Origin: Eledone cirrhosa
Taxonomy: Eukaryota
Reading direction: 5' to 3'
Length of the DNA: 64,000 nucleotides
NCBI GenBank assembly: GCA_964016885.1
Contig: OZ024742.1
Coordinates: 135,284,001-135,348,000 of the forward strand
Part shown: positions 27,788 through 63,388 of the stretch, in pieces
Position numbering within the stretch: the stretch's first letter is position 1
Layout of the letters: every line of letters begins with the position of its first letter
Translations under genes and position numbers: made by a program
The notes under the pieces: model-generated
The model's input: the letters and a program-made list of their open reading frames with translations, nothing else
Told to the model about the DNA's origin: nothing
The model's database searches: none

Positions 27788-28171
27788 GATGGTAGAGATA
27801 GAAAATGCGAAAAAAGGATGATGCAGCAAATGAGAAGATTGGAAGTGGTGGTGGGGGAGAAAATAATTAGGGTTTCAGAAGAAGAAGAAGAGGAATATAC
27901 CAATCAACAGAACTACAATCATGATTACAATGAGAATTAAAAAAATATAATATTTATATATAAGTATGTATACGTACATACATATATGTATACATATGTA
28001 CAGTAGTATGTATATATATATACATACATGCACACATATATATATATATGTACGTATGGATTCACCGAACATTTATTATAGTGCTCGGTGTGTTTGTAAA
28101 CAAACATCCCGAATTAAGCCGTACAGTGTCTAGCAACCATCGTTGCTCATTTGTTCAACACTGACAAAATA

Positions 28172-28214
28172 ACGCTGTACTAGTTTCAAGCTTATTAGCT
28201 ATCCTCAGCAACGT
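28172..28214 (-). ncRNA. Type I minimal hammerhead ribozyme (element A, copy 1)
   Basis: Minus strand: acgttg-CUGAGGA-u-agcu-aaua-agcu-u-GAAA-cuag-UA^cagcgu. Stem I is 6 bp (one GU), stem II is 4 bp, stem III is the palindrome ACUAGU, and the cleavage triplet is GUA. Confidence 0.88.
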
Positions 28215-28588
28215 ATACCTTCCTGCCAGATTGTTGAACGTATATACTTTCCTTATGCATATTAAAGGCTGAGCAGCCTAATTTGCATATCGAGTGAGTT
28301 AATCGGCCGGAGTACCGAAAACGATAAACGGAAAAAAAGAAACGAAATTTCATTTCTCACACTTAGTACGGCTGTTACTTAAATATAAGTAGGTATACAT
28401 ACATATATGTATACAGACGTACAGTAGTATGTATATATATATACGTACATGCACACATATATATATGTACGTATGGATTTACCGAACATTTATTATAATG
28501 CTCGATGTGTTTGTAAACAAACATCCCGAATTAAGCCGTACAGTGTCTAGCAACCATCGTTGCTCATATGTTCCACACTGACAAAGAA

Positions 28589-28631
28589 ACGATGTACTAG
28601 TTTCAAGCTTATTAGCTATCGTCAGCAACGT
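28589..28631 (-). ncRNA. Type I minimal hammerhead ribozyme (element A, copy 2)
   Basis: acgttg-CUGACGA-uagcuaauaagcuu-GAAA-cuag-UA^caucgu. The only core change versus copy 1 is at the free N7 position; one stem I mismatch. Confidence 0.85.
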
Positions 28632-28777
28632 ATACCTTCCTGCCAGATTATTGAATTCTGTATATACTTTCCTTATGCATATTAACAGTATATACTTTCC
28701 TTATGCATATCAACAGCCGTTAATATGCATAAGGAAAGTATATACTTTCAGAGTTCAATCATCTGGCAGGAAGGTAT

Positions 28778-28819
28778 ACGTGATAACGATAGCTAATAAG
28801 CTTGAAACTAGTACAGCGT
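28778..28819 (+). ncRNA. Degenerate hammerhead (element A, inverted copy)
   Basis: acgtg-ATAACGA-tagctaataagctt-GAAA-ctag-TA-cagcgt. The CUGA box is mutated, so it is predicted inactive. Confidence 0.6.
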
Positions 28820-29585
28820 TCCTTTGTCAGTGTTGAACAAATGAGCAACGATGGTTGCTAGACACTGTACGGCTTAATTCGGGATGTTTGTTTAGAAACA
28901 CACCGAGCATTATAATAAATGTTCGGTGAATCCATACATACATATATATATATATATATGTGCATGTATGTATATATATATACATACTACTGTACGTCTG
29001 TATACATATATGTATGTATACCTACTTATATTTAAGTAACAGCCGTACTAAGTGTGAGAAATGATGTTTCGTTTCATTTTTTCCGTTTATAATATTTATA
29101 GTAAAATGATAAAAAAAATAAACATATCTAAAACAAAAAGGGAGCCACAAAGAATTTTATATGGAATCGATAATGCTATGTTTTGGGGGGTTTTTTCTCT
29201 CTAAGGAGGAAAAAATGCATTCAATAATCTCTCTACTAAAATCTCATTCTTATTCCTCTCAGAAAATCAAATTATCATTTTTCTAAAGAGTATGCTTGTG
29301 TATGTCCAAAGTTTATCTCACGGCCAGATCCAAACCGCAATTGGCCTGAGTGTGATTTCTACAAAATGTATGAATTGCATCGAATTTAGACAATATTTTT
29401 AATTTTATAGAGTTAAACTCCTTCTCTTTCTCTCTCTCTCTCTCTCTCCCTATATATATATATATAAATGAAGTAATTCCGTCGGAAAGGTCCAGGAAAA
29501 AAGAGTGCTCTATGTGGGTTACAGAGCTTATTAGTTATGTAATAAACAACATAAGATAATTGAATACCCCTTCCACTTTTTTGTC

Positions 29586-59662: not shown

Positions 59663-59860
59663 GGGCTGTGAATTGGCAAAATCATCAGAAGGGCCAACAA
59701 ATTACTACGTGGCCATTTAGTCTCGGCCATTTACTTTCTCAGTACAAATCCTGCCGAGTTTCACTTTGCCTTTCATCTTTCTGGGATCGAAGCAGTCAGA
59801 ATGCAGTGAATCTGATCGACCTTCTCCTCCCCAAATATTACAGGCATTGTGCCTAACTTC
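59663..59860 (+). mobile_element. Diverged SINE copy
   Basis: gggctgtgaattggcaaaatc...caaatcctgccgag...ctttgcctttcatctttctgggatcga. Confidence 0.7.
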
Positions 59861-59979
59861 GACGCCATTATTTTTGTCATTTAATTGTTTTATACTATAA
59901 TAAATTACTAAAGTTTAAATCTCATTAAGGTTTGAGACCTTTCATTTTTAATCATTCGAAAACAAATATGTATTTTAGC

Positions 59980-60160
59980 TCAGTATCGGTAGAGGGTCGG
60001 ACGCCATGCTCTCCAGCATAGAGTTACGCCCCTTTATGGTCTGAGTTCAAATCCCGCCGAAGTTAACTTTGCCTTTCATCCTTACGGGTCGATAAAATAA
60101 AGTACCAGTAATGCACTGGGATAATTGCTGGCCTTATGCCTATAGTAGAAACAATTATTG
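59980..60160 (+). mobile_element. tRNA-derived SINE (same family as 38709)
   Basis: cagtatcggtagagggtcggacgccatgc...gagttcaaatcccgccga...tttgcctttcatccttacgggtcgataaaataaagtaccag. Confidence 0.9.
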
Positions 60161-60569
60161 CAAAAAGCATTTTCGTAATACTATATAACAAGGATCCTAG
60201 AAACATATATTTGTTTTCCTTTTTATATATTTCCTGACTTTAGACGTTCAAACATGTAGCACCACTGTTTCTTGCAGCAAATATATTATCCGTAGGATTA
60301 CAACCATGCCGGGTATTGCTGCCATAGGTCTTAGTTGATCATGACCCCTGTAACAACATCATTTCTTGTCTCAACATGGAAATTGTTTTATCGGTTTCTA
60401 TTTGTGTTCAACTGGTATATTTTGTTCGGAAACTAACGTAGCTTGATATATTCCTTTACGCCGACATACCCTCACACACACACACACACACACACACACA
60501 CACACACACACACACACACATATATATATATATATATATATATATATATATATATATATATATATCGAC

Positions 60570-60752
60570 AGTCGATCAACTTTCGTCAAATCGGAGCGAG
60601 GAAACAATGTTTCCATTGGTCTTTCCAATTGCTAATAATTTATATCGGTCGTAACTCCAGGTAGAAGGAGCAAAGTGAAATAAATTGTCTTGCCCAAGGA
60701 CATAACGCATCGACCGGTCCAGCAATGGAACTCACAACGCGATTGAGCGTCA
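60570..60752 (-). mobile_element. SINE, second family (paralog of 54563-54779)
   Basis: gtcgatcaactttcgtcaaatcgg...gaggaaac...caggtagaaggagcaa aligns by eye with the 54563 copy. Confidence 0.82.
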
Positions 60753-63187
60753 ATATCTCTTACCATTATATAAGATATAAATATATATACATATCCTCCC
60801 ATATATATATGTGTATGTGCGCGCGCACGCATGTGTGTGTGTGCGTATGTGGGGGTTTGTATGTGTCTGTGTTTGTGCGTACAAGCATACGGCGGGCTTC
60901 AGCACAAGTGTGATCAACCGTTAGACTGAGAACGAGAGATATAAAGAGGAAGGTGTGAAGGAAAACATGATGTGATGTTGGTTAACAGCAGTCAGCTGAA
61001 ATTGTACCAACTTGTTATAAAGTCTACAAATGCCGTGGCAGTCCCATTATACACTGCGATAATATACATCATATTACTTGACAAAGGTATGGTGTGATGT
61101 TAGCGTGATTCGCTCCCTACTTTCGTCGAGCGACTGCTTAGATGCGATCTTCTTTGCTCTTTATAGTTAATGCAGATATTCTATCTATGAAAAGGGTTAC
61201 AGATTAATTGGGATATGGATAGAGTACAGAAAATACGTGTGGATGGAGTGAGCAAATAATGTGTTAAGGAGAAGAAAAAAAGCTTATGGGGACAGCAACA
61301 TTGAGAAGTTACTTCAAATTAAGTGAAACAGAGGAAAAGGTGGTGAGAGAGTGAATGAGAGAAAATTGATATAAAAAGATTAATGAAGACTGAGAAAGAA
61401 CGTTAAGGGAGAGGTATTGGGAATGTAAGAGAAATGACATTATTGGAGAAAAGGAAACACACGAAGGGAATAAGAGACATTGCGAGAGCAAAATCAAGGA
61501 AAGGCAGGTATGTAAAGAGAGTGTGAGAAAAAATGAAGGCCGGGGGAAGAGAAAGAAATCGAAAGAAAAACAGAAAGAGTGAGGAAAGGAAATATTGTGT
61601 GTTAATAAAAATAGATGCGGAGTGGGTATTAGGAGAAGTACCAAAATTATTAAGCAATTCTAGAAACAAGGAACGCTGGGAACAAATTAGATTTCCCAAG
61701 ACGTAAAACTGATCAGTCAGCAAACTTCATTCTATAAGAATCGTTCTTACATTGTTTTCTTTCTTTTTATCTTAGTACTTTTTTCTTCTGTTTTTCATTT
61801 ACACCATTTTCTTCTCTTTCAATCATATTTCCTTATATATGATTTTCCCCTTTCTATTTATTTATTAATCTCATTTCCTCAATTTTATTCCTACTTTATG
61901 TTTTCCTTTCTGCATTTCATGACTTTTCTCAGTTTCTTTCAATCTTGTTTACTCTTTCTTCATATTTTTCTCCCTCATTCCTATTTCTATCCAGCTTTAT
62001 CATTCTTTCTCATTTTAATTTCATGATATATTTATACCTGCTTTGTCTCCATTTCTTTCGTAATAACTTTTATCCTTATTTTTTATGTTCTCTCCTTAAT
62101 TTCGCTCTTTTCTTTTCCTCATTATTCTCTTACGTAACGTGTTACCTAAATTCTATCATTCCTATTTTTATTTATTTCATCCCTTCTACAAATATTACTT
62201 TCATTGTGCATGAATATTTGGTCTTCATTCACATACGTCATATATTTTTTAAAATCTTTTTTTATTGTTTTCTTTATTTTTGCTCAGTCACCCACTTCTC
62301 ATTATAAGCACTCTCTGAACCATAATTGATATTAAAAATATCGATAAGCTAGGTGACGGCTAATATTGTTTATTGCCATTCCCCATACAGCTAATAACGG
62401 GCTCGCACATAGAGATATACGCACACCCACACGCCTACACACAAACATACACACCCGTACACATATATATTTGTGTGTGCATACAAAAATGCATACAAAA
62501 GTGTATTTATATAAATATATATATATATATATATAAACATATCAGCTTTTTGTATGTCATTATAGAAAGAAATGACTTCGTCGAAGGAAGAACGGCAAAT
62601 GCCCATAAAGTACTGCAGCAGGCATTCCAAGTGGTCGGAACAAAAGAGAAGAAACTATGATGCAAGGATTGTTCTCAGTGTCAAAACCTGTTCTGAATTA
62701 TTGCAACCAAGCGCATTTATATATATAGTATTTTACGCACGCATCTATATATATGTATATATGTGTGTATGTATATGGTTTGGCTACATGTACAGATATG
62801 AGTAGTTTGTCGTTACATATACCTAGTATAACAAACTCGTACATATAAGTAGCCTAAATAGAATAAATGCTGATATCCCTTAGATAATTTTATCCATTAC
62901 CTGCTACCATAGAAATTAACGCCCATAAGGTTTTATACTGAGGTTCAATTTGATTATAATATCAGTAAATACTATTCTATTTGCATTGACGACAGACATA
63001 GATTATATTGATACCAGAATAGGAGTGATCCTAATACCCAACATATTGACCATTAAGATAAGTACCGTAAAATAATTCTGGCAATTCCAACCTTCCATAA
63101 CCCTAGAAAAAACTTTGTTTTGGTACGCAAATGCACTTTTTAATACATTGTATATAATTGATCATGACGATATCTCTATGAGGGTAT

Positions 63188-63388
63188 TATTTATTTGGTT
63201 CCTTTACCGGTTTCGCAGTTCTTGTGCTTTTCAATGCAAGAATTGAGATGGATGGTTTGTGGTTTTTCTCGCATCTTTTTTAAAAAGGCTCCAGTGGCAT
63301 TTTCGATTTCAACTTTTTTCCTTATACTTTCACTCGTGTAGGACAACTCGTTTTTTTTCTCATTTTGTAAAAAAAACATCCTTTTCTT
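63188..63388. mobile_element. Element D copy 2: same family as 57911-58190, with the hammerhead segment inverted
   Basis: 63188-63270 is the reverse complement of ~57988-58070 (UUGAAAA-gca-caagaac-ugc-GAAA-ccgg-UA on minus, 63201-63238). 63275-63388 is a direct match to ~58080-58190. Ends in (TA)n. Confidence 0.8.

Follow-up and report, generated by a model that had tools for sequence, protein, structure and literature searches.

What copies short, gene-less repeats that carry hammerhead ribozymes, and does the ribozyme define the RNA that is copied? This question is raised by a 64,000-nt stretch of the Eledone cirrhosa genome (assembly GCA_964016885.1, 3.0 Gb; contig OZ024742.1, positions 135,284,001–135,348,000 of the forward strand), hereafter the window. 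A preliminary description, made from the letters alone, had recognised at least four hammerhead-bearing families (A–D) and a relic at 55103 within it, and had proposed that they are non-autonomous retroelements mobilised by Penelope-like elements (PLEs) with their reverse transcriptase (RT) and GIY-YIG nuclease. Our analysis supports this for A, B and C, which are inserted in the manner of PLEs, but not for D; overall we think it likely that A–C are gene-less hammerhead units copied in trans by PLE RT and GIY-YIG, and that D is the truncated end of an autonomous PLE.

Elements A, B and C all lie on the minus strand of the window. Element A (27959–29089) comprises 1.75 head-to-tail copies of a ~420-nt unit plus an inverted arm: the direct arm runs from 28690 down to 27959 and has a tail-less 3′ end, it is preceded by a tailed inverted arm (28714–29089), and the whole is flanked by identical 11-bp target-site duplications (27948–27958 and 29090–29100, plus strand). 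Element B (30664–32071) is built alike: an inverted arm (31644–32071) comes before a direct arm (31625 down to 30664) of 1.75 copies of a 550-nt unit, with TA repeats at both ends. Element C (40955–41827) holds 1.6 copies of a ~530-nt unit (direct arm 41819 down to 40955), its 3′ end lies in (TA)25 and an 11-nt micro-inversion (41817–41827) marks its 5′ end. The direct tandem copies first described for A–C are confirmed, as are the inverted 5′ segments of A, B and D copy 1 (57908–57987); in the window C this segment amounts to just the 11 nt, with an inverted arm present at 17 of 27 loci of the family.

The four families are mutually unrelated, as had been judged by eye: blastn among A, B, C and the pseudo-long terminal repeat (pLTR) of D gave no match at E<0.05. 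Searches of the genome returned 1472 first-look candidates for A, 1886 for B, 2403 for C, 730 for D and 143 for 55050–55205, which are not copy numbers; 40 candidates were scored and 30 fetched per query, the fetched samples are biased toward the copies most similar to the query, and duplicate and self loci were dropped from most tallies, giving n<30. The sister subfamilies C2 (1509 candidates) and C3 (2200 candidates) of C were also sampled, and C1, C2 and C3 are mutually 68–80% identical over the whole unit. The top matches were 93–94% identical for A, 87–93% for B, 95–98% for C and 93–96% for D.

Across the fetched loci, units of ~420 nt (A), 550 nt (B), ~530 nt (C1), 557 nt (C2) and 519 nt (C3) are joined head to tail at an identical junction at dispersed loci on many contigs, in direct arms of 0.5–2.8 units. 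The 5′ ends are scattered round the unit, whereas each family has two fixed 3′ end points, 56 nt apart in A, ~30 nt in B and 117–122 nt in C. An inverted arm adjoins the 5′ end at 16/29 loci in A, 16/27 in B, 17/27 in C1, 20/29 in C2 and 18/24 in C3, and with ends counted within 5 nt, one outer end was tailed and the other tail-less in 14/17 (C1), 13/20 (C2), 11/18 (C3) and 6/16 (A) cases; both ends are tail-less at a single A locus, and the remaining loci end elsewhere. The fixed 3′ ends are followed by (TA)n in 21/26 and 17/23 cases for A, 16/18 for B, 24/27 and 18/19 for C, and 30/32 and 11/19 for D; (TA)3 or longer follows 74–95% of A–C ends as against 10.5% of background positions, so that the TA-rich setting noticed in the window is a property of the families. 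A target-site duplication could be read for the window A (11 bp), those of other loci being unreadable inside (TA)n. The elements are self-contained, with no flank common to more than a few loci and a median span of 0.6–0.9 kb; neither a shared upstream body nor a long open-reading frame (ORF) was found in the A–C units, in which the longest ATG frames are 76 aa (A), 34 aa (B) and 83 aa (C), and PLE protein matches at these loci lie only outside the elements (judged by eye from coordinates). The absence of ORFs previously described thus holds for A–C; D is part of an element encoding RT and GIY-YIG. This insertion anatomy of A–C matches that of PLEs (PMC8557442). As A–C share no sequence with the PLEs seen, we infer Neptune-type mobilisation from anatomy and target, not from homology. 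At two C insertions (L069 and L086) the flanks beyond the TA run are inverted copies of each other, which could be an inverted target duplication or an insertion of C into another foldback repeat.

A descriptor for type I hammerheads, adjusted post hoc by raising the helix II limit from 50 to 70 nt after C-family matches appeared, found three intact motifs in 25.6–64 kb of the window, one each in A, B and C and all on the minus strand (core nucleotide C3 at 28208, 31548 and 41604), whilst 200 local shuffles of the same region gave a mean of 0.11 matches and 1/200 attained three. The A motif (28172–28214) is of the minimal form, with a 6-bp helix I, a U-U followed by a 4-bp helix II and a palindromic helix III, and cleavage is predicted between 28178 and 28177; its second copy (28589–28631, minus strand) has a single U-U mismatch in helix I, and that of the inverted arm (28776–28820, plus strand) has a mutated core. 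In B (31472–31556, predicted cut between 31480 and 31479) an 8-bp helix I is combined with a 3-bp helix II with a large loop and a long helix III; copy 2 (30927–31011, minus strand) has one helix I mismatch and the inverted-arm copy (31820–31904, plus strand) a mutated core. The C motif (41529–41608, predicted cut between 41533 and 41532) has a 4-bp helix I and a 51-nt helix II domain (41597–41547), closed by six pairs ~40 nt apart and followed by GAAA (41546–41543), a 10-nt palindromic helix III and the cut site; its second copy (40997–41076, minus strand) has a mutated A15.1.

The C motif had been described as lacking stem II, on which point the preliminary description erred. In C, the GAAA beside CTGATGAC forms the 5′ arm of helix II, the catalytic GAAA being located 51 nt further downstream; in the sister subfamilies the site after CUGAUGA-C reads GCAA, GGGA, GGAA or GTAT and the far arm changes to match, and the stem-II-less fold was rejected on these grounds. 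Nor is C a dead half-core, as it was read for a time; a type III topology and a box C/D interpretation were weighed by eye and set aside. Inspection also suggested a possible loop-loop pairing in C, which is not counted. A metagenome scan for the C motif gave 0 matches, and a search of the genome with the 3′ end of C alone found nothing, though the query was 62 nt of AT-rich sequence and hence uninformative.

Across copies, the descriptor found the motif intact in 35/47 copies of A, 38/51 of C1, 54/62 of C2 and 45/49 of C3, and the catalytic core of A–C is nearly invariant while helix II diverges. Helix covariation between sister subfamilies was found in all three families and is weakest in B: 94% of cells are paired with 18 double changes in A, 96% with 11 in B and 97% with 10 in C, values that 0/500 shuffles attained in any of them, and slid controls pair 15–56%. 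The double changes fall at 6/13 pairs in A (compared with a sister family and an older copy), at 9/18 pairs in B, and at 3/6 closing pairs of helix II across C1, C2, C3 and two single old copies. The shuffle control ignores relatedness, so these counts support selection without proving it. As circles, the A and C units fold better than shuffles (z −3.9 to −4.9).

Two short motifs are candidate promoter elements. One, in A (28281–28288, minus strand), which we take to be an octamer, is invariant across three A-lineage units in which 41% of all positions are invariant, and is intact in 34/42 copies; the octamer-type promoter of newt satellite 2 may be a parallel, though a literature search for it returned nothing. 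The other is a palindrome in C (41764–41769), presumably an E-box, which is retained in the C1, C2 and C3 units.

Copies attached to PLE ORFs, a check suggested with the proposal, were found for D and, in the loci sampled, not for A–C. In D, a search of GIY-YIG frames (10,597 candidates; 150 scored, 70 stretches fetched) reached a parent element (L181) with D sequence at both ends of a 4977-nt unit as direct pLTRs, between which a 938-codon frame carries RVT_1 (below the curated cut-off), a C-terminal GIY-YIG domain, DKG, YLDD and a CX4CxxC linker. D loci reach variable lengths into this element; D is the 3′ end of an autonomous Neptune-type PLE (~5 kb, RT and GIY-YIG), truncated on its 5′ side, and not a non-autonomous family. 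The assignment to Neptune is putative, by motifs alone; the linker is shared with Nematis (PMC8557442), and no homologue named Neptune appeared among the 120 listed out of 915. The family is young, its 99 best RT matches being 97–100% identical, many with 775-codon frames. A frameshifted ORF just after the 5′ pLTR and upstream of the long frame was also seen in L181, suggesting an ORF1 or a longer single ORF, and an upstream GAGCCAC block and a CCAAT-type box recur in two other PLE families.

In the window, D copy 1 (57908–58192, plus strand) is the 3′-terminal ~210 nt of this element, consisting of a tailed direct part (57989–58192) and a tail-less inverted arm (57908–57987) with (TA)n at both ends, whilst D copy 2 (63188–63388, plus strand) joins an inverted 5′ piece (63188–63276) to the 3′ end (63282–63388). 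The U3-A8 core ascribed to D was seen correctly (58024–58030, in a hammerhead at 58020–58057 on the plus strand) and is a form already in print, but helices I and II are damaged there and intact in the parent; the second hammerhead (63201–63238, minus strand, within the inverted piece) is decayed, so that both window copies have broken helices. By descriptor 5/42 D copies are intact, or 21/42 if a 3-bp helix I is allowed, and helix I has its full 4 bp in 6/7 ORF-bearing loci as against 9/67 short-copy motifs listed.

The 5′ ends of D bear directly on the role of the ribozyme. A query confined to sequence 3′ of the ribozyme gave 30 copies (including the window copy and two loci seen before), of which 13 start within one 5-nt stretch. 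This stretch begins 29 nt downstream of a TATA box and lies 72 nt upstream of the cut site. Another six copies start further up and 11 further down. The cut itself is the start of no copy, the closest starts being 7–8 nt below it; the inverted arm of the window copy starts 1 nt below the cut site. The pile-up below a TATA box, together with the lack of starts at the cut, suggests a putative transcription start and likely an uncut linear RNA as template.

Possible mobilisers of A–C are at hand. At least seven PLE families were seen in the genome, young PLEs with RT and GIY-YIG are present, and the hammerheads of several autonomous PLEs match those of A and B in having U-U or A-C below helix II. 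Another young PLE family (L231:3311–6025 and L232), with ~900-aa frames and best matches 94–96% identical, has a linker without CX2-5CxxC and showed no canonical hammerhead at its 3′ end in our scan; L231 shows that PLEs of other types than Neptune occur in this genome.

Several observations weigh against copying of A–C by PLE enzymes as functional ribozyme units. Searches through GIY-YIG loci and with RT found no autonomous partner of A–C, the A, B and C units match none of the seven PLE 3′ ends compared (a small part of the PLEs of this genome), and A–C copies inside GIY-YIG loci look like separate insertions. The covariation comes from few related subfamilies, and most double changes in B are owed to two distant motifs whose homology is partial or uncertain; B moreover passes the descriptor in just 11/30 copies (core intact in 19/31), its unit has no folding excess (z −0.3) and its isolated motif prefers another fold. 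Taken in isolation, the hammerheads of these families are no more stable than shuffled sequence (z −0.9 to +0.2), as would be expected if they depended on a dimer or on helpers. Minimal PLE-type hammerheads cleave poorly (Cervera and de la Pena, PMC4209133), and one of nine Xenopus dimers cleaved (bioRxiv 10.64898/2026.07.22.740005).

How copying by PLE enzymes would proceed can be proposed tentatively. The tandem copy would be transcribed, probably from the unit-internal motifs (the octamer in A, the E-box in C), successive hammerheads would cut unit-length RNA, in A and C probably as dimers via the palindromic helix III, and this RNA may circularise. A Neptune-type nuclease would nick (TA)n, the RT would prime at an AT-rich site of the unit, run for 0.5 to ~3 units and stop at random, and resolution would leave an inverted arm, with just one of the ends tailed; the D template would likely be an uncut linear transcript beginning 29 nt below the TATA box. 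On a further-reaching reading, to which we give less than an even chance, A–C would be self-promoting circular-RNA parasites whose hammerheads cut unit-length circles that PLE RT copies for more than one round directly into (TA)n, while the hammerhead of the autonomous element in this genome leaves the copied RNA uncut. If true, one genome pairs a direct footprint of retrozymes using PLE enzymes with a natural test of the role of the PLE hammerhead, and also offers a new hammerhead form with a large helix II. The A–C units could instead be non-autonomous PLEs copied from uncut read-through transcripts of tandem masters, with no circle and with the hammerhead kept as a regulator, weak cutter or RT-binding structure; we regard this as possible, though on the unlikely side. 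It agrees with the D starts, which favour the putative transcription start above the ribozyme over the cut (13/30 against 0/30), with hammerhead-less non-autonomous PLEs that make the same multi-copy tandems (PMC8557442), and with the fact that all sampled A–C direct arms cross a cut site and only 1/132 starts exactly there, although the queries spanned the cut and so selected against such arms. It sits poorly with a catalytic core that is nearly invariant as helix II diverges, with a mild excess of starts 0–13 nt past the cut (9/132 against ~3.6 expected if uniform) and with the want of any D-like 5′ pile-up in direct or inverted arms of A–C, a pattern in keeping with a template whose 5′ end is not fixed (within the spans of earlier B and C queries, a pile-up was excluded via inverted arms only).

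That A–C are solo pLTRs of undiscovered autonomous PLEs, with tandems arising by local DNA recombination as proposed for Xenopus retrozymes, seems improbable to us. D shows that short copies can be pLTR fragments, and most PLE families lie outside the GIY-YIG sample described above; against this, one and the same junction is present at loci dispersed over many contigs, with newly formed 5′ truncations, inversions and tails, the loci showed no upstream body in common, and C1–C3 retain the whole unit at 68–80% identity. Chance matches in AT-rich foldback repeats or miniature inverted-repeat transposable elements (MITEs) would explain why no Rfam hammerhead family appeared among the 150 of 193 matches listed, nor at gathering score in four loci, and two of the five motifs first claimed had indeed been misread. 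For A–D this explanation is largely refuted and retains hardly any credibility, given the shuffle control, the covariation and the variable 5′ but fixed 3′ ends, which are unlike those of MITEs; it holds for 55103.

There, the supposed relic is a junction, at which an old, (TA)n-terminated repeat family ends with its 3′ end (55110–55205, plus strand); only about 55110–55205 is repeated. A hammerhead was rejected since CTGANGA occurs at that place in 0/16 relatives, which have a pyrimidine run where the window reads ATGATGA. Loose hammerhead-like traces lie ~200 nt upstream in 7/29 relatives of the 55103 repeat and are absent from the window. Elsewhere, the flanks of the fetched loci (L001–L280) contain more than 15 additional distinct type I hammerhead motifs, in many of which helix III is palindromic and helix II has a mismatch at its base. 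It seems that this genome harbours a large fauna of hammerhead repeats, and one that Rfam misses.

The setting of these elements is itself repetitive. The first 25.5 kb of the window (1–25545) is a satellite that has a 52/156-bp period and an extreme G skew (0.9), beyond which microsatellites are abundant. Nested against B is a foldback element of ~480 nt (32105–32590), 83% self-complementary, with short terminal inverted repeats and a TA context; it is MITE-like, has further copies in L089 and L246, and no hammerhead was found in it. A decayed frame between 110-bp terminal inverted repeats (34327–35240) resembles a Tc1/mariner-type DNA transposon. A SINE-like repeat of ~185 nt recurs in copies 77–87% identical (38709–38896, 48149–48303, 56867–57045, 58716–58998 and 59981–60162), a ~155-nt repeat pair (54563–54718 and 60571–60726, 87% identical) adjoins TA runs, and an inverted pair of segments that are 66% identical (37773–38137 and 47308–47674) probably represents old LINE fragments.

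Set beside known systems, A–C resemble non-LTR retrozymes, which are tandem type I hammerhead units expressed as circles (PMC7229834), in being gene-less, low-GC tandem units with a type I hammerhead (PMC7229834; bioRxiv 10.64898/2026.07.22.740005) that share their genome with autonomous PLEs, and A has U-U at the base of helix II as does axolotl HHR_Amex2 (PMC7229834). Their units (420–557 nt) exceed retrozyme circles of 170–400 nt (PMC7229834) and lie within the 51–972 bp range of the 2026 preprint deriving retrozymes from PLE pLTRs, which covers 35 genomes and, in the part drawn on here, no mollusc (bioRxiv 10.64898/2026.07.22.740005). The arrays are short, with up to ~3 units in 3.2-kb loci, and the 5′ inversions, one-sided tails and (TA)n targeting are not reported for retrozymes in the portions of PMC7229834 and bioRxiv 10.64898/2026.07.22.740005 that we cite. 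Chlamys PLEs such as MRC1, from which non-autonomous families with tandem insertions are known in Chlamydomonas (PMC8557442), likewise have pLTRs and make ORF-less, head-to-tail multi-copy insertions at microsatellite targets; however, they are green algal, mostly lack hammerheads and have a 3′ end resembling that of an autonomous partner, whereas no such partner was found for A–C.

D is like the Neptune PLEs in the RT with DKG of its parent, the CX2-5CxxC linker, the C-terminal GIY-YIG domain and the pLTRs with a minimal hammerhead, as well as in its 5′ truncation and inversion, one-sided tail and microsatellite bias; unlike in the Neptune PLEs in print, many short D copies run from one fixed 5′ point. 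The D tail is 68 nt (56 in A, ~30 in B, 117–122 in C), compared with the 30–40-bp tail of the published PLE insertion pattern (Craig et al., PMC8557442). Short helix I, palindromic helix III, an extra base 5′ of helix II and, in D, the U3-A8 core are shared with minimal PLE hammerheads including the Schistosoma U3-A8 variant (PMC4209133), and the U3-A8 core, palindromic helix III and U-U at the helix II base are in print (PMC4209133, PMC7229834). Unlike these, A, B and C add an unpaired base 3′ of helix II and C has a helix II domain of 49–51 nt with an inner hairpin, whilst the long helix III of B is like that of fungal and protist forms (PMC4209133).

Our literature searches found no paper on hammerheads or retrozymes in octopus or other cephalopods; a 2026 repeat annotation of Octopus vulgaris lists 31 recently active PLE families, its main text, as far as it is drawn on here, being without ribozymes (PMC13282606), and its repeat library may already contain the A–C families. 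The link between retrozymes and PLEs is likewise in print (bioRxiv 10.64898/2026.07.22.740005; PMC8557442), and in the portions of the papers that we cite, the case for retrozymes borrowing PLE enzymes consists of shared ribozymes, co-occurrence and pLTR homology. To this A–C add young, abundant gene-less units bearing the PLE insertion signature of inverted arm, one-sided tail and TA target, and supply dimer constructs on which the predicted cleavage can be tested. For PLEs, in which the role of the hammerhead is called unclear (PMC8557442), the 5′ ends of D argue that the hammerhead does not define the copied RNA. As a whole, A–C fit non-LTR retrozymes or non-autonomous PLEs; they belong to a known kind, and what stands out is their unusually clear PLE insertion signature.

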